This document shows, piece after piece, positions 4,807 to 55,066 of a stretch of DNA of 64,000 bases. Position 1 is the first letter of the stretch. The number at the start of each line of letters is the position of its first letter. The translations under genes and the position numbers were made by a program. The stretch comes from a bacterium. Lineage in GTDB: Bacteria > UBA8248. Below the pieces are notes generated by a model. The model saw nothing but the letters and a program-made list of their open reading frames with translations. It made no database searches and was not told the DNA's origin. Where the stretch lies: positions 3,648,001 through 3,712,000 of the forward strand of contig OZ253442.1 of NCBI GenBank assembly GCA_965261085.1, in the 5' to 3' direction.

Positions 4807-5229
4807 ATGAATTATTGGGCATACGTTCATCCGGCTTTTCAGATTGCCACGCTTTCGCTGGGCCTGATCACTCTGGCCAACGGCTTGCGCGTGAGGCGTT
4901 CCCGAAGGGGAGGAGCCGGACCCGAGACGGCGCGCATCGCCCGCCTTCACATGCGGCTCGGGCGATGGTTCATCGCTTTTTTCTCGGCGGGCTACGCTTT
5001 GGGGCTGGGCGGGATGCGCTTCGCCCTGGAAGGGCCCCTCTACGAGACGGCGCACAGCTATTTCGCCACCCTGGCCCTGGGCTTGTTCTGGACGACGGCC
5101 TATCTGGGACGAAGACTGAGAAAAAATCTCAAAAACGACGATTTGCGGCAGATTCACTCCTATTGCGGGTTTCTGGCCGTTTTTCTCGCCCTGTTCGTCG
5201 CTTTTTTGGGGATGCGCCTACTCCCCTAG
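4807..5229 (+). CDS. DUF4079-like 4-TM membrane protein (cytochrome b561-like His pattern)
   Basis: Hydrophobic segments with His at HP, RLHMRLG, TAHSYF and RQIHSY. Confidence 0.65.
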   Translation: MNYWAYVHPAFQIATLSLGLITLANGLRVRRSRRGGAGPETARIARLHMRLGRWFIAFFSAGYALGLGGMRFALEGPLYETAHSYFATLALGLFWTTAYLGRRLRKNLKNDDLRQIHSYCGFLAVFLALFVAFLGMRLLP

Positions 5230-5472: not shown

Positions 5473-6426
5473 ATGCTGAGAAAATCGTGGTTCATCCTGT
5501 TCGCCGCGCTCCTCATCGCCTCGCTTTGGGCCGCCCTTCCGGCCCAGGCGGCGAACCCATGCGCCAAGAACCCGTGCGCGGCGAAAAATCCGTGCGCGTC
5601 AAATCCTTGTGCGAAAAACCCCTGCGCTAAAAATCCTTGCGCAAAAAATCCCTGTGCAAAGAACCCATGCGCCAAGAACCCCTGCGCAGGAAATCCGTGT
5701 GCTGCCAAGAACCCTTGTGCTAAAAACCCCTGTGGCGCGAACCCGTGCGCGAAGGCGGCGAAGAACCCCTGTGGCGCGAACCCATGCGCCAAGGCGGCGA
5801 AAAACCCTTGTGGCGGGAATCCGTGCAACCCTTGTGCGGGCGGCGCGGCCCGGGCGAGGAGCGAGGCCGTCATGCTCGTCGGCCAGGTCACCGGCTACAG
5901 CAAGGGCTATCTGGGCGTGCGCACCTCCGCCGGCAAGAACGTGAGCGTCCACGTGGTGAAAACCACGCTGGCGCACAGGGGGCCGAAACCGATCAGCGCA
6001 GCCTCCATCAAGGCCGGAACCCGGGTGAACATCTCCACCCAGGCCAGGGGCGGCTACTACAAGGCGAACTTCATCTACGCCCTCGTAAGCGGCGGAGGTA
6101 ATCCCTGCGGCGCCAACCCCTGTGGCGGTAACCCCTGCGCCAAAAATCCCTGCGCCGGCAACCCTTGCGCGAAGACCGCCAAGAACCCTTGCGGGGGAAA
6201 CCCCTGCGCAGCGAAAAATCCTTGCGGGGCCAATCCATGCGCCAAGAAAAACCCGTGCGGCGCAAACCCCTGCGCAGCCAAGAACCCTTGCGCCAGTAAC
6301 CCGTGCGCGAAAAAAAATCCGTGTGGTGGGAACCCTTGCGCGAAAAACCCGTGCGCCGCCAAGAATCCTTGTGCGGCGAAGAATCCGTGCGCCAAGAATC
6401 CTTGCGCTCCGGGAGGGAAAAAATAG
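5473..6426 (+). CDS. Exported Cys-rich protein with two Asn-Pro-Cys repeat arms (about 18 and 19 NPC) flanking a small beta (DUF5666/OB-like) domain
   Basis: GGAGG RBS at 5461, ATG 5473, signal peptide ending AQA, repeats (A/G)(A/K)KNPC. Confidence 0.85.
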   Translation: MLRKSWFILFAALLIASLWAALPAQAANPCAKNPCAAKNPCASNPCAKNPCAKNPCAKNPCAKNPCAKNPCAGNPCAAKNPCAKNPCGANPCAKAAKNPCGANPCAKAAKNPCGGNPCNPCAGGAARARSEAVMLVGQVTGYSKGYLGVRTSAGKNVSVHVVKTTLAHRGPKPISAASIKAGTRVNISTQARGGYYKANFIYALVSGGGNPCGANPCGGNPCAKNPCAGNPCAKTAKNPCGGNPCAAKNPCGANPCAKKNPCGANPCAAKNPCASNPCAKKNPCGGNPCAKNPCAAKNPCAAKNPCAKNPCAPGGKK

Positions 6427-6500
6427 AAATGCCTCCACGCGCGGTGCGTGGAGTTTGACTTTTCTTGAAGTCGGATTTTTCCATATCCTGCAAGGAGAAA

Positions 6501-7358
6501 ATGATGAAGACAGCAAAGTGGGGCATCATTCTCGCCGTGGCCTTAGGCCTGATGATTCCATCGGCCGCCCAGGCGGCGGAAAAGAAGGCGACTATCACGC
6601 CGCCGCCCTTTTTCTTCACCCAGCAACGCGACGCCAGCGTGAAGGACTCCGTCACCCGGGGCAAGAAAATCTTCAGAGACATAGGCTGCGTGGGCTGCCA
6701 CCCCCGGGGCCGCACCGTCGGCGGCACCGCCGTGGACATCATGGGCTTCAGGAACCCGGTGCCCATTCCCACCCTCATGGGAGCGGCGGATCACTTCCCG
6801 CGCCTGAGTCCGGCAAGCCAGGTGGTGAACGTCGGGCAGTTCAACGACCTTTGCTCCACGACGTTCATCGGCAATCCGCCCATGGACCCCTATTCCCAGA
6901 GATACAAGGACCTCGAATCCTACGTGGTTTCGCTCTCCCGCGCGCGATACAAGCGGATGCTCGACTGGGAGGCGAAGCGCAAGGCGTTCATGAAGACGGT
7001 GCAGCCCGCGGCCGGTGGGGGGAACCCCTGCGGAGCCAACCCCTGCGCAGCCAAGAACCCTTGCGGGGGTAATCCTTGCGCCAAGAATCCATGCGCGGCG
7101 AAGAATCCCTGCGCCGCCAAGAACCCGTGCGCGTCAAAAAACCCCTGCGCGGGGATAAATCCTTGCGCCAAAAATCCGTGCGCGGCTAAGAATCCCTGTG
7201 CGGCCAAAAATCCTTGTGCGGCGAAGAACCCCTGCGCTGCCAAAAATCCTTGTGCGAAGAACCCTTGCGCTGCGAAAAACCCCTGCGCTAAGAATCCTTG
7301 CGCGAAAAACCCGTGCGCGGCAAAGAATCCGTGCGCAAAGAATCCATGCAAGAAATAA
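6501..7358 (+). CDS. Exported monohaem cytochrome c (SoxA/TsdA-like His/Cys type) with a C-terminal tail of about 20 NPC repeats
   Basis: AAGGAG RBS, signal peptide, CVGCH, FP...NDLC...LESYVVSL pattern, NPC tail. Confidence 0.85.
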   Translation: MMKTAKWGIILAVALGLMIPSAAQAAEKKATITPPPFFFTQQRDASVKDSVTRGKKIFRDIGCVGCHPRGRTVGGTAVDIMGFRNPVPIPTLMGAADHFPRLSPASQVVNVGQFNDLCSTTFIGNPPMDPYSQRYKDLESYVVSLSRARYKRMLDWEAKRKAFMKTVQPAAGGGNPCGANPCAAKNPCGGNPCAKNPCAAKNPCAAKNPCASKNPCAGINPCAKNPCAAKNPCAAKNPCAAKNPCAAKNPCAKNPCAAKNPCAKNPCAKNPCAAKNPCAKNPCKK

Positions 7359-7496: not shown

Positions 7497-8297
7497 ATGA
7501 AGTTTCTGAAGAAAAGGGGGTTGTGGATCGTCGTGGCTCTCGCGTGGAGCCTCATCGCGCCCGCCGGTTCTCTTGCCGCCAAGAGAATACCTCCCAAGAC
7601 CGAGACGGCGAAGCAAAACGGCGCGGACTACTGGCTGGGCAAGGAAATCTATGAGGAAATCTGTTTTTCCTGCCACGGCAGCAAGGGTGACGGGAAGGGC
7701 CCTAGCTGGCGGAGTTCGAGGCCGAGACCGCAGGTGTTCATCAGCCCCTACATGAGGCGCATGACGGATGACTACATCTTCTCCATCGTGAAGTTCGGCA
7801 AGATGAATGTCTTGAAAAACCAGACGAAGGGCCACAAGATAAAAAACGGCGTCCCCACCGCCATGCCCTCGTTCGGCGAAGTGCTCGAAGACGACCAGAT
7901 AAGAAAGCTCATCAAATGGGAGCGCGGCTTCACGAGCGGCAAACAGCCCAAGGATGAGGAGTCGAAAGGGATCTTCATCGACGCCTGCTCCCAGTGCCAC
8001 GGCAAACAGGGCTTCGGCAACGGAATCCGTCCCGTGGAGGATCAGGACCCCGAAAAACCGTTCATCAGCCACATTCAGCCGCCGCCGATGAACTATCACC
8101 TAAAAGAGCAGATGGCGCGCTTTGACGACGAATTCCTCTTCTGGCTCATCAAGTTCGGCCGCATCGACGTCACCGAGATGAAGAAGTTCGACTTCATGAA
8201 GGCCTACGGCCACGTGCTGAGCGATGAGGAGATATGGTCGGTCGTCCAGTATGTCCGCGAAACGTTCATCGACGGCAAGCCGAGAAAGAAGAAATAG
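7497..8297 (+). CDS. Exported dihaem cytochrome c
   Basis: Signal peptide; CFSCHG and CSQCHG; AMPSFGEVL and LSDEEIWSVVQYVR class I cytochrome c helices. Confidence 0.9.
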   Translation: MKFLKKRGLWIVVALAWSLIAPAGSLAAKRIPPKTETAKQNGADYWLGKEIYEEICFSCHGSKGDGKGPSWRSSRPRPQVFISPYMRRMTDDYIFSIVKFGKMNVLKNQTKGHKIKNGVPTAMPSFGEVLEDDQIRKLIKWERGFTSGKQPKDEESKGIFIDACSQCHGKQGFGNGIRPVEDQDPEKPFISHIQPPPMNYHLKEQMARFDDEFLFWLIKFGRIDVTEMKKFDFMKAYGHVLSDEEIWSVVQYVRETFIDGKPRKKK

Positions 8298-8860: not shown

Positions 8861-9172
8861 ATGAGTCTGAACGTCGAAGCATCGCGAGAGGAGGTCGCCG
8901 CCTTTTGTGAGCGCTGGCAGGTTACACAACTCGCCATTTTCGGCTCGGCGCTGCGGGAAGATTTCGGGCCCGATAGCGACGTAGACCTTCTCGTGAGCTT
9001 CGAAGACGGCGCGCGCCATACGCTCTTTGACATGCACTACATGGAGGAGGAGCTTAAAACGATATTCGGGCGTGAGGTCGATCTCATTGAGCGCGTAGGG
9101 GTCGAACGAAGCCGAAACCACATCCGCCGCGAAGCCATCCTCCAATCCGCCGAGACGATTTATGCGGCGTGA
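8861..9172 (+). CDS. Minimal nucleotidyltransferase (MntA-type antitoxin)
   Basis: IFGSALREDFGPDSDVDLLV...FGREVDL. Confidence 0.9.
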   Translation: MSLNVEASREEVAAFCERWQVTQLAIFGSALREDFGPDSDVDLLVSFEDGARHTLFDMHYMEEELKTIFGREVDLIERVGVERSRNHIRREAILQSAETIYAA

Positions 9173-9500
9173 CGACGCCTGGCTGGTCGACATGTTACAG
9201 GCCGCGAGAGAGGCGGTGGAGTTCGCGAACGGACTGAGCTTCGCGGAATTCGAACAAAACCGCATGGTGCAACTCGCGATCCTGAAAGCTATGGAAATCG
9301 TAGGAGAAGCCGCCTCCCACGTCGGTGCCGACGCACGAGAAGCCTATTCCGAAATTCCCTGGCCTGAAATCGTCGGTATGCGCAATCGTCTCGTGCATGG
9401 ATATTTCAACGTCAATCTGAAGCGTGTGTGGGAAACCGTCCAACAGGACATCCCCCGGCTTATTTCACAACTCGAACGGCTCGCACCGCCGGAGTCTTAG
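9162..9500 (+). CDS. DUF86/HepT HEPN RNase toxin
   Basis: EIVGEAA, IPW..IVGMRNRLVHGY (RX4H); overlaps the MNT gene. Confidence 0.9.
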   Translation: MRRDDAWLVDMLQAAREAVEFANGLSFAEFEQNRMVQLAILKAMEIVGEAASHVGADAREAYSEIPWPEIVGMRNRLVHGYFNVNLKRVWETVQQDIPRLISQLERLAPPES

Positions 9501-10673: not shown

Positions 10674-10874
10674 GGACCCGCCTCCACATCTGATGAAGTT
10701 CGACCGCACGAACCTTAGCATATATCAACATGAACATGCGGCGCAGGCGCGATACGCTTTCAGGCGTGAGGGCACGCCGTGTGCGAGCGATTTGACGCCT
10801 TTGCTCCGCTTGGGCATATATTCATGGCGTTCCCAGCGGGAAACCTCACAGCGAAACCACAGGGCGCATGCGAA

Positions 10875-11702
10875 ATGAGAGCAATAGAGAAAACCGGCGC
10901 ACATCATGTCGCGGCGCGCTTTATTTTCCCCCTCCTCATCCTTCTGATCTTTACGGCTCCGGCGGCGGGAGAGCGACAGGGCAAACGCGATGAGACCGTT
11001 CCCTCCCCTCCCATCATCAAAGTGCTTCCCGATACGAAAGACGGCCGGGCGATGGTGTTCGTGCCGGGGGGCCGCTTCACGCAAGGCTCATACGACGGCA
11101 ACCCTCAGGAGCTTCCCGTGCGAAAGGTCTTCATCTCCCCGTTCTGGATGGATCGCGATGAGGTGTCCGTCGCCGGTTGGGAGAGGTTCCGAGAGACCAC
11201 GGGCCACCGGGCGTCTAAGTATTCTCGGGACAAAACGCTCCACCGGCCTCATCTGCCGGTCGTGGGCGTCTCCTGGTTCGACGCCGGGGCGTATTGCGCC
11301 TGGGCCGGCAAGCGCCTGCCCACCGAAGCCGAGTGGGAAAAGACGGCGCGCGGCGCGGACGCGAGGCGCTACCCGTGGGGCGATTTTTTCGATCGCGCCC
11401 GCGTGGGCGGTGGCGGCCCCCAGCCCGTGGTCGGCAATCCGGGCGGCGAATCGCCCTATGGCGCGCGTTCGATGGCGGGCGGCGTCTGGGAGTGGACGCA
11501 TGATTTCTGGGGCGAGTTCTATTACCGCGAAGCGCCGCTCAAAGACCCGCAGGGGCCGCCTTCCGGGTTTTTGCACACCATTCGGGGCGGTTCGTGGCGC
11601 GAAGGCCCCGAATACTTGAGGAGTGCGGAGCGTTTTCGCCTCGACGGCATCATCCGCTGGAAAATTCTGGGCTTTCGCTGCGCGAAGAGCGGGGGGAGGT
11701 AG
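10875..11702 (+). CDS. Formylglycine-generating-enzyme (FGE-sulfatase) domain protein
   Basis: PVVGVSWFDA.AYC.WAGKRLPTEAEWEK.ARG, RGGSW, LGFRCA; hydrophobic N-terminus. Confidence 0.9.
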   Translation: MRAIEKTGAHHVAARFIFPLLILLIFTAPAAGERQGKRDETVPSPPIIKVLPDTKDGRAMVFVPGGRFTQGSYDGNPQELPVRKVFISPFWMDRDEVSVAGWERFRETTGHRASKYSRDKTLHRPHLPVVGVSWFDAGAYCAWAGKRLPTEAEWEKTARGADARRYPWGDFFDRARVGGGGPQPVVGNPGGESPYGARSMAGGVWEWTHDFWGEFYYREAPLKDPQGPPSGFLHTIRGGSWREGPEYLRSAERFRLDGIIRWKILGFRCAKSGGR

Positions 11703-14890: not shown

Positions 14891-15068
14891 AAATCAATCG
14901 CACTACACACCCCGATGGATGATTCGGAAGGGACGTTTCGCTTCGATCCGCCTCATCTCGATTTTTTTCTTGACTCCTCTCCTAAATTCCTTACAAAATC
15001 TTAACATTGCATCGCCGCCTTGGTTGATACCATATCAACAGGTTATTGGGGCGGAGGATCCAATTGGC

Positions 15069-15779
15069 ATGAACCGCAAAAACTCCATTCTCATCGTCGA
15101 GGATGAGAAAAACATCGCATCACTCATCGACAAGTCTTTACGCCGGGAAGGTTTCCACACCATCATTGCTCATGACGGGGAGCGGGCCCTGGAACTCGCG
15201 CGCGAGTACGAGCCGATTTTCGTCGTGCTCGATCTGATGCTCCCGAAGATGAACGGGTGGGAGGTTTGCAGGCGGCTCCGAGAGGAGTCCGACGTTCCCA
15301 TCCTGATCCTCACGGCCAAGGAAGGAGAGGTCGACAAACTTTGCGGCTTCTCGCTGGGCGCCGATGATTATGTCGTCAAGCCCTTCAGTCCGAGGGAACT
15401 CATCGAGCGCGTCAAGGCCATCCTCAGGCGCACGAGAAACGCGTGCATGTGCAGGAAGGCGAAACTCTCTTTCGGCAACCTGCTCCTGGAACCCGAAAAA
15501 CACAAACTCACCCGAAACGGCAAACCCATATCGCTCACCCCTTCGGAATACGTGCTGCTCCAGACGCTCATGAGCTCGCCCGGTCGCGTTTTCTCCCGCC
15601 ATGAACTACTCACCAAGCTCTACCAAACGTCGGACGCCGTAGTCGATCGAGTCGTGGACGTCCACATCGGAAAACTCCGGCAAAAAATCGAGTGTGACCC
15701 CGCCAATCCCCACCTCATCCTCACGACGCGCGGCGTGGGATATTGTTTTACAGACGAGGAAAAGCAAGGAGGCAATTAG
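15069..15779 (+). CDS. OmpR-family response regulator
   Basis: VEDE, LDLMLP, GADDYVVKPFS, DVHIGKLRQKIE, RGVGY. Confidence 0.95.
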   Translation: MNRKNSILIVEDEKNIASLIDKSLRREGFHTIIAHDGERALELAREYEPIFVVLDLMLPKMNGWEVCRRLREESDVPILILTAKEGEVDKLCGFSLGADDYVVKPFSPRELIERVKAILRRTRNACMCRKAKLSFGNLLLEPEKHKLTRNGKPISLTPSEYVLLQTLMSSPGRVFSRHELLTKLYQTSDAVVDRVVDVHIGKLRQKIECDPANPHLILTTRGVGYCFTDEEKQGGN

Positions 15780-15780
15780 C

Positions 15781-16845
15781 ATGAAAAGTCGTCTGCTCTG
15801 GAAACTTCTGTCCATCAACCTGCCAGTCATTGCACTGGTCATTCTCATCGTCTGGTTGTCGATCGATTTCCTCGCCGCCGATTACTTCGCCGCCCTGATG
15901 CGCAAATACAACATCTCGCCCACGGAAACACACCAGATGTTCCTGAACGCCGTTCATCGCTACATCATCAGTACCAGCCTGGTCGCCATCCTCATGGCCT
16001 TCGTCTTGAGTTTCTTCCTCACCAAGAGAATGCTACGCCCACTCTACGCGATGGCCGAAGTGTCCAGAAAAGTATCGCAAGGCGATTTCACCGCGCGCGC
16101 GGATATTTCATCGAGCGACGAGGTCGGCAGGTTCGGGGTGATGTTCAACCAGATGGCCGACAATCTGGAGAAAATCGAAAAACTAAGACAATCCATGCTG
16201 GTGGATATCGCCCATGAGTTGAGAACCCCGCTCACCACGGTGCGTGGATATCTCGAAGGTCTGGCCGACGGTATCATCCCACCCGCCAAAGAGACGTTCT
16301 CCATGTTGAAGGAGGAAATCTTGCGCCTCGTGCGCCTGGTCCAGGATTTTCAAAAACTTACCCTAGCCGAGGCCGCCAAGGTCTATCTCAGGCGAGAGGA
16401 AATTCAGTTGTCGCATCTGGTGAAGCGCGTCATCGAACTCTATCGGCACGATTTCGAAGTCAAAGGCATAAGGGTGAACCTGGATTTCAACGGCGAGCCA
16501 TGCGCAGTGCAGGCGGATCGGGACAAAATTGTCCAGGCTCTGGGAAATATCGTTCAGAATGCATGGCGGTACACGCCCGAGCAAGGGGAGTTCCGCGTCC
16601 GGGCGGAAGGGTGTGGAAAATATGTAAAGATTATTTTTTCAAATACTTGTCATGAGTTCCCGAAAGAAGATGTCGGCCTCATCTTCGAGAGGTTCTACCG
16701 TGTGGAAAAATCTCGTTCCCGCGACAGCGGGGGGGCGGGCATCGGCCTGGCGATAGTGAAAGCTCTCGTCGAGGCGCATGGAGGCGAAGTGGGCGCCTGG
16801 TATGACGAAGACGCCATCCACATCTGGCTCAGCCTCCCCCACTGA
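15781..16845 (+). CDS. HAMP sensor histidine kinase (BaeS-like)
   Basis: Two TM segments, HAMP, HELRTPL, FERFYR..SRSR.SGGAGIGLAIV. Confidence 0.95.
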   Translation: MKSRLLWKLLSINLPVIALVILIVWLSIDFLAADYFAALMRKYNISPTETHQMFLNAVHRYIISTSLVAILMAFVLSFFLTKRMLRPLYAMAEVSRKVSQGDFTARADISSSDEVGRFGVMFNQMADNLEKIEKLRQSMLVDIAHELRTPLTTVRGYLEGLADGIIPPAKETFSMLKEEILRLVRLVQDFQKLTLAEAAKVYLRREEIQLSHLVKRVIELYRHDFEVKGIRVNLDFNGEPCAVQADRDKIVQALGNIVQNAWRYTPEQGEFRVRAEGCGKYVKIIFSNTCHEFPKEDVGLIFERFYRVEKSRSRDSGGAGIGLAIVKALVEAHGGEVGAWYDEDAIHIWLSLPH

Positions 16846-17031
16846 TCTCCTGGTTTGCGATTTTTTGACGTTTTTTCATCAATTCACCATATCTTTTTGG
16901 TATGCTCTTCGAAGCGAACTTGTATAGTGGCATCCGCCGATCATCAAAAAAGCCGCCAGCACAGCTTCATGACCCTCCGGTGAATCAAAAACCGGGAGAG
17001 TTGAAAACACACCCGAAAAAGGAACCAGACC

Positions 17032-17496
17032 ATGCGAAACATCCACAAAGCTCTCATGATCCTCCTTACGGTATCCTTGCTCCCCCTCGTATCGAATTCC
17101 GTGACCGCCGCCGAGCCGACCGTCATCACCCTCACCCAGACGGGATGCCAGTTCACCGAGCCCGAGGGCAAGGACCACGGTTTCAAAACCATGGGGTCGG
17201 CCGATTGCAAAGCGATCAACTCCCAAAGCGGAAAGAAGCGCCTCGCCGAAGCCGAGACCATCACGCTCAAACCAGGCAAGTACATTTTCCGGGTGAAAAA
17301 CAGAGACGTGCCTTACCAACTCGGGTTTTATCTGCGAGGCGCAGGCATCGGACGCCTCACGCTGCCGAAGGTTTCGGGGGGCGGTCTCGTGAAGGGGAAA
17401 TCGAGGGATTACGCCATCACCCTGAAAGAGGGCGATTATTATTATTCATGCCCCCTGAACCCGACGCCAGATTACAGTCTGAAGGTGACGAACTAG
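17032..17496 (+). CDS. Exported cupredoxin-like domain protein
   Basis: Signal peptide; LKPGKYIFRV, G.YYYSCPLNPTPDY. Confidence 0.7.
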   Translation: MRNIHKALMILLTVSLLPLVSNSVTAAEPTVITLTQTGCQFTEPEGKDHGFKTMGSADCKAINSQSGKKRLAEAETITLKPGKYIFRVKNRDVPYQLGFYLRGAGIGRLTLPKVSGGGLVKGKSRDYAITLKEGDYYYSCPLNPTPDYSLKVTN

Positions 17497-41909: not shown

Positions 41910-42464
41910 TTAGGTCCGGGCCTTGCGAACCGTCTCGATACCGATGAACATCCTGAGCGGACGCGACGGCAGCGACTGAAACCCCATGGCCGCGTAGAAC
42001 GCGCGGCGTTTTTCCGTGATCCCGGGGCCGCCGTCCTCAATCACGTCGAGCACCACGGCCTTGAGCCCGATCTGATCCGCAGCGGCTGCCGCGCGGTTCA
42101 ATGCGTCCGCGAGAAGAATGCGTCCGAAGCCCTGGCCCTGGCGGCGGCTGTCGACTGCGATCATCGAGAGATAGACGGCCGGAATCCAGCCGGAGCGGGG
42201 AGCGTTCCTCGTCAGGTTCGCCGGGAGGTCGTCGCCTTCGAGCGAATGGGCGTTCAGCGCGTAAAACCCGAGAATTTCGGCGCGCCCGCCTTCCGTGGCC
42301 ACCCAGACCCGCGTGAAGTCTCCCGCCTGGTGTTTCCTGGCGGTGCGTTTGAGAAAGTTATCGAGCCGATCGGTCCCGCAGGAGAAAGCCGCTCGATCGT
42401 GTTTTTGCGGGTCGAGCGGCTCGATGGATATTCCTTGTGGATTTGGGGCCGCCTCAGCCGTCAC
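41910..42464 (-). CDS. GNAT acetyltransferase toxin (AtaT/TacT-like)
   Basis: HDRAAFSCG..LDNFL, IAVD...QGQGFG..LL.DAL, AFY..MGF. Confidence 0.9.
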   Translation of the reverse strand: MTAEAAPNPQGISIEPLDPQKHDRAAFSCGTDRLDNFLKRTARKHQAGDFTRVWVATEGGRAEILGFYALNAHSLEGDDLPANLTRNAPRSGWIPAVYLSMIAVDSRRQGQGFGRILLADALNRAAAAADQIGLKAVVLDVIEDGGPGITEKRRAFYAAMGFQSLPSRPLRMFIGIETVRKART

Positions 42465-42765
42465 GCGCCACCCGCGCGCCGTGCAGGGCCATCGCCTCGC
42501 GCAACGCTTCGGTCGGCTCCGCAGGCGCATCGAGGGCAGTGAGGACGAGGTCGCGATCCTCCGCCGAGAGGAGGGTACGCTCATGATCGGCAATCGTGAG
42601 CCGGGCTTGCTCCAGCGCCGCGCTAGTCACGAAAGTCGTCTCGTCGACGCCGAGCAGGGCCGCCGCCTGTTGGATCTGCGCTTTGACGTGCGGTTTGGTG
42701 CGTTGTTCCATGCGCGCCGTTTTCGGCTCGTCGATGGCGGCCGCAGGGTCACGGAAGTTCAGCAT
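42454..42765 (-). CDS. DUF1778 RHH antitoxin (AtaR/TacA-like)
   Basis: ARMEQRT...K..IQQAAALLG...TFV...A; overlaps the toxin start. Confidence 0.9.
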   Translation of the reverse strand: MLNFRDPAAAIDEPKTARMEQRTKPHVKAQIQQAAALLGVDETTFVTSAALEQARLTIADHERTLLSAEDRDLVLTALDAPAEPTEALREAMALHGARVARDG

Positions 42766-48277: not shown

Positions 48278-51121
48278 TTAGTCCTCTCCCTCCAGATTCA
48301 TCTTGAGCAACTCCCCCAACGCCTCTCCTTCGGAAATGTCGGCGGGCCAGCCATAGGCGGCGGCTACAGCGGCGTCGAGTTCCGCGTGGGTGTCGGCGAG
48401 CCATTGCGGACGGGTGTTGTAGAGGTTGGTGAGGGTGCGCTTCTTGAGTTCTTTCGCGGAGGTTTCATCGAGCGGGACGGGACGCTTGGGATATCCCGGA
48501 ACAGGCTCGTCCACCCACTCCACCCATTCGGGCGGATTCAGCCAGTTGTCTCGGAGTTCCACCAGCCGCCGTGCAGCTTCGGCGATTAGGACGGCGCGTG
48601 GATCGTCCTTGTAATCGACGGCGGATACATCGGGCGAAAGGCCTTTCGGGAATGGATAGGTCTCGAAGGTGGTGGTCGGCGTATAGCGTGGGTCGTTTCC
48701 CACCCCAACCCAAGTGCAAAGTCTGAGTGACCACGCTTCATGAAACCGGCTGTGGAGAACCCCGAATGTCGTATCGTCGTCGCGAGCGATTACGATAACT
48801 TGGCAATCGGGACAAATACCAGCATCCAGCCACACGAATAGTCGATGCTTGGCGACGCGGGGCGTGGCGATGTAGCGCGATAGGCCGTTTATGGCTTGCC
48901 ACATCTCCGGGCGAGGACGCCAGTGTCGCCACCAAAAATCCATAATTCCTTTTTCGTCGCTTTTCTTTTTCACCGGTAAAACATGTTCCTGGATATAAGC
49001 AAAAGGCGCTTCATAAAGCGCTGCGTCGGCCTCGCTCATCGTATCGCCGAAATCGACGATCCACATGTCTCGTGGACGGCGCGTCAGGTCCATGCCGTTC
49101 ATCCAAGGCTTCAAAACGTCGGCGTTGGGCCGCCCGTTAGGGTTCGCGGGGAGTCGCAGCCACGACCGCGCCAAATCTCCGGGGATATCGAACGAACCAC
49201 GCTTGATGTCTCCCTGAAAAGCAACACCCTCGCTTCGTTTCAGCGGATTCGCTGAAGTGAGATCGAGACTTCCTGCGGATAAGTCCGCGTTGATTTGGGA
49301 TACATCACTCTCGTCCAGACGAACGGGAAGTTCGGCATCCTTTGAAGCGAAGCAGATCAGCGAGACGCGAACCGCTGCCCCCTCGACGACCCAAGACTCA
49401 TCCGAGTGGGCGTCGAAAATAGCCGAATCTTCCAGAATTTTATCCAGTGTTTTACGATTTGTACCGCCACGGATCGAATTCGTCGCCACCAGACCGGCGC
49501 GTTCAACTTTTCCTTCAGCGACCAAACGTCCTGCCTTGGCGAACCAGTAACAAACCAAATCGGGCTTGCCGCGAATCAATCCTCTGTATGTGCGTGGTAG
49601 TGTTTCGGCGTAATCATATCCTAATTCCTTGCGGAGTTTTCTATTTCCCAGAAACGGGGGGTTGCCGATGACGACGTCGACTTCCGGCCAGTCGGGTTCT
49701 TCGCCCTCCACCGTCAATATCGCGTCGCGGCATTCGATTGTGTCGAGTGGTTTAAGAACCGGGTCTCGATTCTCGACAAACCCGTTGCGCCGCATCCACT
49801 GAATCTCACCAATCCACACCGAGACGCGGGCGAGTTCGGCGGCGTAGGGGTTGATTTCGATTCCCTTGACGTTAGCGGGACCGACCGAGGGGAACGCCCG
49901 TTCGAGACCCATCGCCTCGGCTTCGAGCTGCGCGCGGTGCTCCACGTCCTTTAGTGCGTGAAGCGCCAGATAGAGAAAATTGCCCGAACCGCAGGCGGGG
50001 TCGAGCACTTGGAACCCTCGCAGTTTCGCAAGAAAATCGCGCAATAGCTGATTCGCCAACCCACGCCGCCTCGTGCGCACAGAAGCCGATTTGGTCTCGC
50101 CTGCCCGTTCGAGATGTTCGGCGATTTCCCTCTTTACTTTCTCCCATTCGGCGAGCAGGGGGCGAGTGATGACCGGATCGATGATGCACATGATCTTGTC
50201 GCGATCCGTGTAGTGCGCTCCGAGTTGTGAACGTTTATCCGGATTGAGGCCACGCTCGAAAAGTGTGCCCAGGATAGAAGGGTCGATTTCCGACCAGTCG
50301 AGACCCGCCGCCGCGAGCGCGGTTTCTATCTCGGCTCTTTCGAGCGGCAGGGCGGAATCGTCGTCGAACAGCCCGCCGTTGAACCACGCCACGGACTCGA
50401 AGCCGACATCCCCGCCTTCGGACATCGCCCCGAACAGGCGGCTTGCCAATTCGGCAAACACCTCGGGCCGATTTCTCGCGCCTTGTAACATCCGCGTGAA
50501 CATCTTGTTCGGCAGAAGCCCCACGTCCTCGGCGAACATGCAGAACACCAGCCTGTTGATGAAATGCGCCACCGCCTGCGGATCGCGTCCGCGTCCTCGT
50601 AGACTATGGGCCAGCAGGGCGAAGGTGGCAGCCGCGCGCTCGGTGATATCCTGCCTGCTCTCGCCGGGCCGGAGCCGTTCAGGGTCGGCCATCGCCCATT
50701 TGAGCTTGTCGCGGTTTGCGGCATCCACCAAATCTTCAAGCGCGAACTCGTGCGTCTCGCTCACGCTGTTCGTCCAGTTGGTATAGATGCGGAAGAGCGC
50801 CATGTCGGAGACGATCAAGAGCGGCGGGTTGTCGAGCGCTAGAGTGTATTGCCTGAGTTACCTGAAAGCGGCGTCCAAATTCTTGTGCTTGCCCTTGTAT
50901 TCCCAGGCGAAATGATGCCGCTTCCACACGTCGGCCCAGCCCTTGCCGCCGCCGTCCTTGCGCGCGCCGCGCTCGAAGCAGTAGTGATCGCCCTTAGGGT
51001 CGGCCTCCGCCGGAGTCGGCTCGTCCAGCAGACGGCACAGGTCGATGAAGTGCTCCTGCGCCGCCGAACTTTCTTTCAACTCCGAGACCCGCCACTTGGC
51101 GATGAACTCACCCGGCGTCAT
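48278..51121 (-). pseudogene. MmeI-like type IIL/IIG restriction-modification enzyme with a premature TAA at 50858-50860
   Basis: MTPGEFIAKW...GWADVWKR..FAWEYKG...AAFR*LRQYTLALDNPPLLIVSDM continues in frame into LGAHYT, DPACGSGNFL, GNPPF and the TRD. Confidence 0.85.
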
Positions 51122-51859: not shown

Positions 51860-52732
51860 TCAGCGATTGAGGACTTGCTTCCAGTTATTTCTGAGCGGCC
51901 GCAACCAGACGTCCTTTTTGGGCTTGTCGTAGCGTCTGTCCCTGTCGTAGCGTCCACGACCCTGGGTGGTTCCGACGTGAATCCATCCCGATGCCCTGTA
52001 GACGGCGCCGGTATAGCGGGGCGTCTCGACGAAGGTCTCGATGAGCACGGGGGTGACGCCATAGCGCTCGGTCCAGTCTCCGGGCAGGCGACGGCGGATG
52101 ATGGCGAGGAGGTGGGAGCCGAGGTTGGGGATTTTGATCCATGGCAGGATGAGGAACCTCGGGTTGTCGACCACGAGGGGGAGGTTCTTCTCGCGCAGCC
52201 CGGACGTCCAGCCGATGAAGGCATCGCGCGGGGCGAGCTTCCATGCGGCGGTGGAGAAGCCGAGCATGGCGAGGGGCCTGCCGTCGCAGTCGTGGACGGC
52301 GTAGCGCATCTGTGCGCCGACGAGGGTCTTGTAGCCCAGGTAATGGTAACGGGCGACGAACTCGTTCCAGAGCTTGCCCTCGCGGGTTCCGCGCACGACG
52401 ATGCGCATATCGAGGGGACGTACCTCATCGAGGGTCTCAGGCGCCGGGATGAGGGGCGCTTCGGTGTCGGGTCCGAAGATGATTGGTCCGGGCCGGTTCT
52501 GACGCCACTTCGGAGGCGGCAGCGTGATCAGGCCGTCCTTGTGCATGGCGAGCATGGTCACCCGGGCCATCATGTCCTTGAGTCCGCCGTCGGGCTTGAA
52601 CCAGCCGATGCGGCGGCAGAACTCCTTCGAGAGCGCATGGCGGTTGAGCGCAGGAGGACCGGCGATCAGCGCGCGCAGCAGCGCCATCTCTTCCGTCGTG
52701 AAGTCGCGTCCGTAGTAGCGGCACTCGGTCAC
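51860..52732 (-). CDS. DUF4338 / DruA-like protein inside the IS
   Basis: R..LS.E.C...W, LWNE...YHYLGY..LVGAQMRY, RD.FIGW, RFLILPW...NLGS, ETFVE..RY.G..YRA.GW...G.T.GRG. Confidence 0.88.
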   Translation of the reverse strand: MTECRYYGRDFTTEEMALLRALIAGPPALNRHALSKEFCRRIGWFKPDGGLKDMMARVTMLAMHKDGLITLPPPKWRQNRPGPIIFGPDTEAPLIPAPETLDEVRPLDMRIVVRGTREGKLWNEFVARYHYLGYKTLVGAQMRYAVHDCDGRPLAMLGFSTAAWKLAPRDAFIGWTSGLREKNLPLVVDNPRFLILPWIKIPNLGSHLLAIIRRRLPGDWTERYGVTPVLIETFVETPRYTGAVYRASGWIHVGTTQGRGRYDRDRRYDKPKKDVWLRPLRNNWKQVLNR

Positions 52733-52736
52733 GGCG

Positions 52737-55066
52737 TCATCCCGGCGCCATGAGGGCGCGCCTGCGTTGTGCGTCCATTGACCAGGGCAGCCACGCGGAG
52801 AGGTCCCCGGGCGCCCGGCCGCCGTTCTCCGCGCAGGCGGTGAGCCATGCCTCCAGCCAGCGGAGAGGGTCGATGCCGTTCGAGGAGAGTGTACCGAGGA
52901 CCGAGTACATCATCGCCGTAAACCGGGCGCCGGCCTCGCTGTCGGAGCCGAACGAGAGTCGCCTGCCGATTACTGGACCCCTGAGCACTCTCTCTGATTG
53001 ATTATTATCCATCGGTACCGAGGGGCGCTCGAGGAATACGCTCAGCCCCTCGCGATGGTTCAGCAGCGAGCGAAGCGCCTTGCCCTCGGGCGCCTGCGCC
53101 GGCAGGGCGGCGAGTTCCCTCCGGGCCTGCGCGAACAGGCTCTCGAGCGCCTTCCTGAGCGCAGCCTGCGCTACGCCGAACGCCGCGCCCTGGCGTTCGG
53201 CGCCCGGGTCGTAACGGGCCAGGCGCGCCTCGTTCAGGCGGTAGAGCTGCGCGATCCGCCCGATCCATCTCTCGCACCATGGCGTCAGCCGCTCCTCTCC
53301 TGCGGCGCAGTGGATATAATCGCGGCGTTGATGCGCCCAGCACCATGCGAGAGTGACCAGACCCCCGGGAATGCGCGCCAGCTTCTTGTAGGCGCTGTAG
53401 CGGTCGCAGACGAGGACCGTATGGCGGCCGGCCGCGCCGAACAGCTTCATCGCGACTTCCGCGCTCCGCGAGGGGTCGACGTGGAAGTAGACGGCGTCCG
53501 TGCTTACCGATGTCCACAGCCAGGCGCGGCTCGAGCGTCCTTGCTCGCGAAGCGACTGGACGCGCCACGTCGTCTCGTCCCCGTGGCGCACCGCCGCCTC
53601 GTTCTGGCGGGCGAGGATCGCGGCAGCCACCGGATCGAACAGGGGTGTGAAGCGGTGCGCGCCGCCGGCCAGCGTCCCTGCGGAGACAGGAAGCCCCTGG
53701 TCGGAGAGCCACGCGGCGACCCGGCGCAGCGGGCGGAAGCAGGCGTAGCGCTCGAACAGGAAGCGCGCCCACACGCTCGTCCCGAAGGACGTGCCCGCGA
53801 ACAGGCGCGGCGCGGGCGGCGCCGACACTTCGGTGGGAGACGACGCGCATTCGCACCCCCGGCGCCACCTCGGACGGCGGATGACGCGCCTGTGAGCCGA
53901 GACTTCGATCTCGACGATGCTCGATACACGGGCGCCGTTCGCCACGTAGGGCTTCCCGCAACCGGCGCAGACGCGCGCACCGGCCGCGGGTTGCGCACTT
54001 CGGTCCTCTCATCGAGCGCGGGCCGTGGGGTGCGGCCATGGCCCCGGGCGCCGGGCTGCCCGCCGCGTCTTCGCTCCGAGCGCGGCCTCTCCTGCCGCTC
54101 GCTCCCGCGCCCGAACAGCCTCCTCGCCAGCACCGCTCCGGTGGCGCGCAGCTTCCCGAGCTCGGCCTCCAGACGCGCTTGGCGGGCCTCCGACTTGCGA
54201 AGCGCACGGCACAACCGCGCGTTCTCCCTGGACAGGGACCCGAGCGCCGTCTTCTGACGCCGCGACCTCCCCAGGGCCTTGCGCAGTTCCGCGTCCGCAC
54301 GCGACGGCGACCTCGAGCGCGCCGCCTCGCGCGCGCGCAGCAACCGCGCCTTCAGCCGTTCGGTCGCAATGCCTGCGGCTCCCAGGGAGACTTTAAGACG
54401 GTAGACCTCCGCGGACAACGACTTGACCACCTCCGCCTGGTCGCGCAATCGCCGCAACCTCCTGTAGAGCCCGATGGTCTCCTCGTCCAGGCTCCGGATG
54501 GTCTCTTTGTGAGCCGCCGACTTCTGCTTCTCCCGGGCCAGTCGTTCCTCCAGCCGGGCGACCTCCTTCTCCCGCCAGCCGATCTCCTTGCGCTCCTCCA
54601 GGGCCTTGCGCACCCGCCCCGCCTCCCCCGGCGACGGCACGCCCGAGAGCTCCTTGCGAAGCCGGACGACCTCCATGCGCAGCGACATGAGCGGGCTGCG
54701 CTTGCGCGGCTCGACTCCCGCTTCCGCGAGTAGCTTCTCCAGCCGCGCCACTTCCGCCTTGAGCGACAGCGCGTCCTTCGCCGCGCGGCGGGCTTCCTTC
54801 GCTTCCCCGGCGGCCTCCTTGAGCTTCTTCCGGCAGACGTCGAGCTGCCGCTTCAGCCTACCCGCACGGGCGCGGGAATCCACTTCCGCCCACCGTAACT
54901 CCTCGCCGCGCGCCTCCGCCGCCTCCGCGCGCGCACGCTCGCGCTCGTACAGCGAACGCCAGTACGCCTCTCCGGTTGTGGACAACTCGGGGGGATGAGG
55001 CCATCGGCCATCCGGCTTCTCGACCAACGCCGGCTCCGTCTCGACAGCTTCTGTCCAAATCTTCAT
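52737..55066 (-). pseudogene. IS66 TnpC transposase with a long coiled-coil N-terminus, 1-nt frameshift near 53987
   Basis: LFGRGSE, GGQPGARGHGR, then in the shifted frame CAGCGKPY zinc finger, HGDETTW, CDRYSAY, CWAHQRR, DNNQSER. Confidence 0.88.

Follow-up and report, generated by a model that had tools for sequence, protein, structure and literature searches.

A Cys-repeat-tailed monohaem cytochrome c of SoxA/TsdA type and its probable selenocysteine-containing relatives

Introduction

SoxA, TsdA and MccSep carry out catalysis at c-type haems ligated by His and Cys, in which the role of the chalcogen ligand is debated. The carrier arm of SoxY, on its side, has one conserved Cys, located in a GGCG(G) at the C-terminus. 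Two arginines, Arg109 and Arg119 in precursor numbering, are required by TsdA according to the available part of PMC6879331. Selenocysteine (Sec), which typically marks redox-active sites (available parts of PMC13188914 and PMC13510729), occurs naturally as the proximal axial haem ligand of a cytochrome P450, as described in the accessible text of PMC11703216. In the MccSep/ExtKL polysulfide reductase, the available portion of PMC13510729 places a Sec beside the haem and assigns the ligand role to Cys239. Two described systems of small exported chains are also relevant here. One is MrpX, a Met-rich secreted sacrificial peptide working with MsrP (YedY) and the SigF/NrsF regulators (text available from PMC4436054), and the other comprises the oxazolin and bufferin RiPPs, the products of MNIO enzymes (accessible part of PMC12452194).

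In this work we follow up a window of 64,000 nucleotides of bacterial DNA (the whole stretch analysed), in which an exported monohaem cytochrome c ends in a long series of NPC repeats. A preliminary description had proposed that the protein holds a SoxA/TsdA-like haem, a type acting on thiosulfate or persulfides, and that its tail could be a portable module acting as a SoxY-like arm.

The cytochrome gene and its repeat tail

The sequence motifs given in the preliminary description (CVGCH, AADHFPRL, NDLC, LESYVVSL and 20 NPC units) are all present in the translated ORF (Table 1). The tail contains exactly 20 NPC units at residues 175-283 (7023-7349), with a spacing of 5-6 residues; elsewhere in the window NPC appears 8 times in 123,996 six-frame codons, that is, about 0.007 expected per 110 residues, so the tail lies far above chance. 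Nine different codon strings are used across the 20 units and no exact DNA repeat exceeds 18 nt, so the repetition is one of protein sequence and not a fresh DNA duplication. The closest named relatives carry a Nitrospinota label. Scanning for promoters and terminators gave chance-level results, and a plasmid search returned a single 70-residue match, with no corresponding listed ORF or annotation.

Table 1. Features of the window and of related loci (L) and proteins (P)
Feature	Position	Strand	Remarks
DUF4079 (cytochrome b561-like) membrane protein	4807..5229	+	Pfam 50.9 bits; syntenic in L050, L010
Exported protein upstream: 18 NPC, small domain of ~80 aa, 19 NPC	5473..6426	+	
Small domain of the upstream protein	5854-6096		OB/DUF5666-like by eye; no Pfam match
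AAGGAG preceding the cytochrome start	6492-6497	+	
Exported monohaem cytochrome c with NPC tail, 285 aa	6501..7358	+	ORF translation; start 6501 or 6504
Putative signal peptide, aa 1-25	6501..6575	+	Basic start, hydrophobic core, cleavage AQA/A; judged by eye from sequence
SoxA/TsdA-type (PF21342-like) monohaem domain and long C-terminal helix	6576..7010	+	AF2, profile, VIA
CxxCH haem attachment site (CVGCH, aa 63); His67 as proximal ligand	6687..6701	+	Conservation among 135 homologues
AADHFPRL, aa 95	6783	+	
Phe114, equivalent to the substrate-binding Arg (Cys-4) of TsdA haem 1 and SoxA haem 2	6840..6842	+	
NDLC, aa 115	6843	+	FP-x18-C118 spacing
Cys118, codon TGC, predicted distal haem ligand	6852..6854	+	In-frame TGA in sister clade
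LESYVVSL, aa 138	6912	+	
Tail of 20 NPC(A/G)xx repeats	7023..7355	+	20 Cys, Lys-rich, zero acidic residues, ends NPCKK
Exported dihaem cytochrome c, two CxxCH	7497..8297	+	Pfam PF13442/PF00034
FGE-sulfatase-domain protein	10779..11702	+	Family in 7/76 NPC loci, 27-41% identity
Response regulator and histidine kinase	14919..16845	+	
Exported cupredoxin-like protein	17032..17496	+	tblastn 48-62% identity; weak plastocyanin match, E 0.017
In-frame TGA at the Cys118 codon	L009:731, L010:5446, L054:5726		
Proteins ending exactly at the predicted ligand Cys	P0293-P0411, P0146, P0147, P0150, P0151, P0206, P0256		
DUF6969, conserved His-rich cytoplasmic protein	L011:9097-9834 and 42 other loci		
Pentahaem cytochrome	L011:7826-9085, L037:6717-7982, L054:2596-3825		

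Fold and predicted ligands of the haem

Family models scored the window cytochrome below their thresholds: PF21342 gave 16 bits (E 0.012) against a Pfam gathering cut-off of 27 bits, which the relative at locus L070 exceeds with 44 bits, and the SoxA model TIGR04484 gave 15.6 bits against a cut-off of 110. When the single sequence was searched against solved structures, only peroxidase matches in the CxxCH region were obtained, and a family profile was needed. This profile, built from a 49-row family alignment, retrieved SoxA (1h31, E 1.4e-14) and TsdA (4wq7, E 8e-10) among 69 sequences, and the resulting alignments put Cys118 on the distal-ligand Cys of both proteins, which in TsdA is Cys96. 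An AF2 model of the haem domain (pLDDT 95) was superposed by VIA on residues 53-144 of SoxA 1h31 (Z 9.2, rmsd 1.8 Å, 85 aligned) and on TsdA haem 1 (4wq7/4v2k; Z 9.1-9.3, rmsd 2.9 Å, 94 aligned). Peroxidase and hydrazine-synthase domains followed at Z 8.2-8.8, so the lead of SoxA and TsdA is modest, and Foldseek gave nothing at E≤0.001, with TsdA ranked first at 2.7e-3. The fold, the CxxCH and the aligned distal Cys of the SoxA/TsdA cytochrome c domain are all present in the window protein, which bears out this part of the preliminary description. Some relatives are labelled di-haem peroxidases, a name that we discarded, as the match is limited to the CxxCH region and the chains have one haem.

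Among 135 aligned homologues, C63 is conserved in 134, and C66 and H67 in all 135. Position 118 is Cys in 123 of these domains, TGA in 3, preceded by the chain end in 6 and frameshifted in 3. The candidate methionines do not form a conserved column in the same alignment (M93 is Met in 7/135, and the position of M128 is L, M or F), and on this ground we rejected His/Met ligation. Given the alignment of fold and ligand, the conservation of Cys118 and the lack of a conserved Met, His/Cys ligation, as predicted from a haem-free model and the alignment, is well supported.

Relation to SoxA, TsdA and thiosulfate chemistry

The window protein shares with SoxA (Rhodovulum sulfidophilum 1h31; TIGR04484) the domain fold, the FP/YP...N-x-C...S....L.aY layout and the distal Cys, but it differs in having a single domain, an NPC tail and relatives with Sec, and in lacking both an Arg at Cys-4 and any soxXYZB found. 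With TsdA (Allochromatium vinosum 4wq7/4v2k) the haem-1 fold and the ligand are common, and the dihaem cytochrome of the adjoining gene recalls TsdB; however, the chain has one CxxCH, compared with the two haems of TsdA, and lacks a second haem domain. Both activity-linked arginines are also replaced: a 27-residue numbering offset between 4v2k and 4wq9 places Arg109 and Arg119 of TsdA at Cys-14 and Cys-4, positions occupied here by P104/A105 and F114. The Cys-4 residue is Arg in the TsdA and in both SoxA haem-2 profile alignments and Met or Tyr in SoxA haem-1 domains, and it is Arg in 0/135 of the homologues.

The genes flanking the cytochrome in the window are not sox genes. A partial scan of the neighbourhoods of NPC genes found no sox family match among 126 ORFs (E≤1e-25) and none among the representatives of the clusters. 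The 126 were picked from 395 unlabelled ORFs, of which 218 lie no more than 3.5 kb away from an NPC gene and formed the pool for the choice. Because it is monohaem, lacks the Arg at Cys-4 and has no sox gene found nearby, the cytochrome belongs to neither the SoxA nor the TsdA family despite its SoxA/TsdA-type His/Cys haem domain, and thiosulfate chemistry of the SoxA/TsdA kind is not supported, given the missing Arg and the lack of a sox gene among the scanned neighbours.

A sister clade with probable selenocysteine at the predicted ligand position

A tblastn search with the haem domain found four distinct loci. One of them (L050) encodes Cys at position 118, as the window protein itself does, and the other three (L009, L010 and L054, the last being the same as L055) show an in-frame TGA at that codon. 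In these three of the four loci the frame continues past the TGA with conserved sequence up to the normal C-terminus, which in L009 includes the NPC tail; the Sec-type protein of L054 has no such tail. After the TGA, 22 of 40 residues are common to the window protein in L009, and the same number in L054. The differences between these two loci downstream of the codon fall as 6/4/22 on codon positions 1/2/3, indicating that the DNA after the TGA is under purifying selection. Moreover, the L010 and L055 contigs use TGA as an ordinary stop and TGG for Trp, which excludes a genome-wide reassignment there.

When the read-through L054 protein was used as query, 192 matches were found among 763 candidates, and the matches listed (120/120) end at NDL or NDM, one residue short of the Cys column; these 120 shortened relatives are protein sequences, and the TGA codon itself is seen in the three loci. 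Source names of the proteins ending before the Cys cover Rokubacteria, Methylomirabilia, Entotheonellia, Binatia, Nitrospinota and Deltaproteobacteria. In a tree of 67 rows, the window clade (support 100/99) is sister to six Sec or shortened rows (95/85), with a joint support of 94/89 from few columns, and two shortened proteins (P0206 and P0256) sit in other branches, so that Sec may be present in several lineages. In L009 (centroid structure) and L054 (minimum free energy structure) a GGC-CGUGA-GCC hairpin is located 18 nt past the UGA, with one U-A/C-G exchange between them. These SECIS-like hairpins are not more stable than shuffled sequences (z -0.55 and +0.92), and the Cys-coding sequence of the window can form a stem at the corresponding register, its loop being free of G; the hairpins are weak candidates for a SECIS.

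If the TGA were a true stop, these relatives would be shortened or pseudogenised cytochromes. The unremarkable hairpin energies and the three loci in which the codon was directly seen fit this idea, but the shared end point of all 120 listed relatives, the selected frame that follows the TGA and the ordinary use of TGA and TGG in the L010 and L055 contigs leave it barely credible. From these sequence data, it is very probable that the TGA of the sister clade encodes Sec at the predicted distal ligand of a His/Sec-ligated c-type haem, and the relatives of the window protein probably define a His/Sec cytochrome c family.

The read-through forms match no NCBIfam selenoprotein model, and the family is not among the 119 families in Table 1 of the 2026 inventory PMC13188914, the table that this comparison covers; a description of such a family was not found in our literature searches either. 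The Sec-ligated P450 (available text of PMC11703216) offers the parallel of a natural Sec as axial haem ligand, but there it is proximal, whereas in the present family Sec would lie on the distal side of a c-type haem, with His on the other face. Similarly, MccSep/ExtKL is a cytochrome of the periplasm in which Sec chemistry is joined to a His/Cys haem, but in the accessible portion of PMC13510729 the Sec is not the ligand, and here it would replace the predicted ligand in a monohaem SoxA fold; five haems with a Cys ligand and a separate Sec/Cys, as in MccSep/ExtKL, are not seen in the window protein. The existence of natural Cys and Sec versions of a small single-domain family would make the role of the chalcogen ligand directly testable, with the Cys orthologues as built-in controls. 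If Sec is confirmed, a selenoprotein family shortened by gene callers would be added, comprising at least 120 database clusters.

The NPC repeat as a portable module

Used as query, the NPC tail retrieved 685 proteins among 2,907 candidates. By motif class, the 107 new NPC proteins listed comprise 60 with a SoxA-type haem, 26 OB-like (plus 4 similar), 13 P460-like and 4 YHS. A genome scan for NPCAAKNPC gave at least 125 loci, with 102 Pseudomonadota among the matches listed and the rest from several other phyla. Within 76 non-duplicate flanked loci, which retain three that look like chance NPC matches (L035, L042 and L075), we counted 40 short NPC ORFs (≤150 residues), mostly a signal peptide followed by repeats, 35 cytochrome fusions and 12 P460-like proteins. 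The portability of NPC suggested by the preliminary description is thus confirmed by its presence on several kinds of domain and in stand-alone peptides. NPC was also observed on DM13 and YHS (seleno)protein domains (L082:1-627 and P0042).

Within the cytochrome family, tailed proteins occupy two separated parts of the tree, and NPC is missing from 26 Cys-type homologues. The C-terminal NPC count of 34 close homologues ranges from 2 to 20 (median 6), 19 of them having an N-terminal block as well, and many units have lost the Cys (NPG, NPP or NPR). Such variable counts, lost cysteines and tail-less homologues fit a sink of the dosage type better than a stoichiometric arm. Many tailed homologues start with the signal peptide of the upstream gene, as would be expected if the two genes had fused with loss of the OB-like domain. 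In this regard, the upstream signal peptide and first NPC block are joined to the cytochrome in L050:1405-2511 and in P0008, P0009, P0012-P0013 and P0015-P0019, and these fused relatives show degenerate repeats and no OB-like domain.

Our literature searches turned up no relevant description of the NPC repeat or of its module, and the tail defines a widespread stress-associated module without description in the literature searched.

Gene neighbourhoods

A gene like the upstream 37-NPC protein adjoins the cytochrome in L010 and L055, and this upstream protein matches weakly (E 0.6) the NCBIfam model of CefA, a RiPP with Cys at every fifth position. The dihaem gene follows the cytochrome homologue directly in three of the four related loci (L009, L050 and L054, 47-77% identity), the fourth contig ending inside the gene; its product is the likely electron partner. 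Some 8-10 kb from the cytochrome lie a two-component pair and a cupredoxin-like gene. The kinase is 49-52% identical to those directly upstream of genes for a stand-alone NPC peptide and MsrP (L025 and L058), and the cupredoxin-like family is present in 10/76 NPC loci; this system (14919-17496) is a possible regulator of the NPC module. The link of the FGE-sulfatase-domain protein to NPC loci is tentative. None of the mer, ars, YeeE or DUF6969 genes is found near the window cytochrome.

Across the 76 loci, neighbours were counted as single-linkage clusters with the representatives alone verified, and several loci are close kin; the counts express association only. The recurring families are DUF302 (19 loci), DUF3179 (15), YeeE/YedE (15), flavin disulfide reductases including MerA (14), radical SAM proteins including ArsS (9), thioredoxin (8), CcdA (6), MerR (6), ArsM (5), MerT (4) and MsrP (3), with single matches to MsrB, NrsF, Grx3, ArsC, ArsJ, MerP and SelD. 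Known Sec forms are given for DUF3179, YHS, YeeE and ArsS in Table 1 of PMC13188914. A pentahaem cytochrome also recurs with NPC genes; it has no conserved extra Cys and is a distant kin of ExtKL/MccSep (47-57 bits compared with the cut-off of 250 of NF040886).

It is against this background that the SoxY-like arm can be weighed, in a protein that would be a thiosulfate/persulfide oxidase whose tail feeds sulfur to the haem. Apart from a fold and ligand position as in TsdA haem 1, such a reading could draw on the adjoining dihaem cytochrome, similar to TsdB or SoxX, on the YeeE sulfur-transport genes and on the pentahaem neighbour. However, to the absence of the Arg and of sox genes one has to add the repeats themselves: they are portable, present in 2-20 copies at either terminus, degenerate in some relatives, missing from the 26 Cys-bearing homologues and from the Sec-type protein of L054, and mostly found without this cytochrome. 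A scan for the SoxY end motif gave four matches, none with a GGCGG end, and no C-terminal GGCG(G) occurs in the fetched proteins tested. A SoxY-type arm is therefore not supported, and the oxidase as a whole is very improbable.

The commonest neighbour of NPC genes is DUF6969, found in 43/76 loci (29 of the 45 that span at least 12 kb) and located directly downstream of the NPC gene in 26 of those 43. This protein has five invariant His and an invariant Asp/Glu, and a hydrophobic N-terminus in 0/32 sequences. Its model (pLDDT 94) reached a best VIA-align Z of 3.3 against solved folds and no Foldseek match at E≤0.001, a result that does not by itself establish a new fold, and it was not named in the literature searched. 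DUF6969 is, on sequence grounds, a candidate maturase or metalloenzyme. NPC repeats could accordingly be viewed by analogy as RiPP-type cores, in which DUF6969 would modify each Cys before export to give a metal-chelating polymer instead of free thiols. The frequency, position and conserved residues of DUF6969 agree with this, as does the parallel with the EGKCG precursors of MNIO enzymes in the available text of PMC12452194, where a signal peptide also precedes variable short Cys repeats, sometimes fused to a domain, next to a putative cytoplasmic metalloenzyme. Against it, DUF6969 was not found in the 64-kb window, in the four closest loci (short contigs) or in the fetched DNA of 33/76 loci, no MNIO/DUF692 match appeared among the scanned neighbours (partial coverage), and both the motif and the neighbouring enzyme differ from those of oxazolin and bufferin (accessible part of PMC12452194); 'NPC' and 'cytochrome' have 0 occurrences in the main text available from that source. 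We consider the modification of the repeats by DUF6969 unlikely.

A possible periplasmic thiol-stress module

Our preferred reading, which we hold tentatively and with a confidence just short of even, is that the cytochrome would provide the redox function in a module against thiol stress in the periplasm. It is based on the alignment of fold and ligand, the absence of a conserved Met and the Cys/Sec exchange at the ligand residue, together with the synteny of the dihaem gene, the roughly 40 stand-alone or short NPC ORFs next to 35 cytochrome fusions, and the recurring neighbours of the mer, ars, Msr, YeeE and thioredoxin types. Cys118, or Sec in the sister clade, would be a reactive chalcogen site at the haem, as in TsdA, making or breaking S-S, S-Se or S-metal(loid) bonds, and the low-potential haem would exchange electrons with the dihaem cytochrome of the adjoining gene. 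As the Arg pocket is missing, the substrate is probably not thiosulfate; less anionic S or Se species, such as poly/persulfide, disulfides or oxidised NPC cysteines, may take its place. The tail, for its part, would be a polythiol sink, flexible, of high capacity and adjustable in length, which takes up soft metal(loid)s such as Hg, As, Cu and Ag or suffers sacrificial oxidation, either appended to several proteins of the module or secreted alone, a Cys counterpart of the Met-rich MrpX. Fusion would place this sink beside a haem able to recycle it, the tail serving as an accessory instead of an arm that the substrate requires. Weighing against this reading are the lack of mer, ars, YeeE and DUF6969 genes near the window cytochrome, the close kinship of several of the 76 loci, the unremarkable stability of the SECIS-like hairpins and the resemblance of the haem surroundings to the SoxA haem-1 domain.

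The available part of PMC4436054 gives a precedent for a peptide sacrificed in the periplasm in association with MsrP and NrsF, and MsrP, MsrB and NrsF adjoin some NPC genes. Both systems would have in common a sacrificial peptide that is small, secreted and repeat-like, accompanied by repair enzymes of the periplasm and a regulator of the ECF type, but compared with the MrpX of that source, NPC uses Cys instead of Met, is also fused to cytochromes and has MsrP in only 3/76 loci.

A purely structural tail has also to be considered, in which intermolecular disulfides between NPC repeats would cross-link or tether the module proteins into a periplasmic matrix and the haem would be a plain low-potential carrier. 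Repeats flanking different domains on both sides and their freely variable number would suit such a matrix. Moreover, the surroundings of Cys118 resemble those of the SoxA haem-1 domain (best rmsd 1.8 Å, M/F at Cys-4), which we take to be an electron-transfer site, so the window haem may be only a low-potential carrier. On the other hand, the structural alternative leaves unexplained both the Sec at the ligand position of a large clade and the association with mer, ars, Msr, YeeE and DUF6969 genes, and it seems to us clearly improbable.

The thiol-stress sink and the modification of NPC by DUF6969 are mutually compatible. A combination in which a His/Sec cytochrome family with Cys orthologues and DUF6969-matured, metal- or chalcogen-binding NPC polymers recycled by haems would form one multi-phylum system is, in our opinion, unlikely. 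NPC repeats are in any case carried by hundreds of exported proteins and travel with DUF6969 and with mercury, arsenic and oxidant-repair genes, and cultured genera such as Marinobacter, Thalassospira and Stutzerimonas make this new stress-defence module tractable.

Other features of the window

Other parts of the window seem to hold further elements of note. An 846-residue ORF at 48278-50818 is presumably an MmeI-type restriction-modification methyltransferase, and the GC-rich (0.69) ORFs at 51860-55066, beside a DUF4338-like gene, look to us like an IS66-type transposase region. We take a nucleotidyltransferase/HEPN-like pair and a GNAT-like ORF (8861-9500 and 41910-42593) to be probable toxin-antitoxin modules. 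Finally, the segment 59043-64000 seems to encode a large secreted protein built of cadherin-like repeats together with a segment resembling scavenger-receptor Cys-rich domains, presumably as in sponge symbionts.
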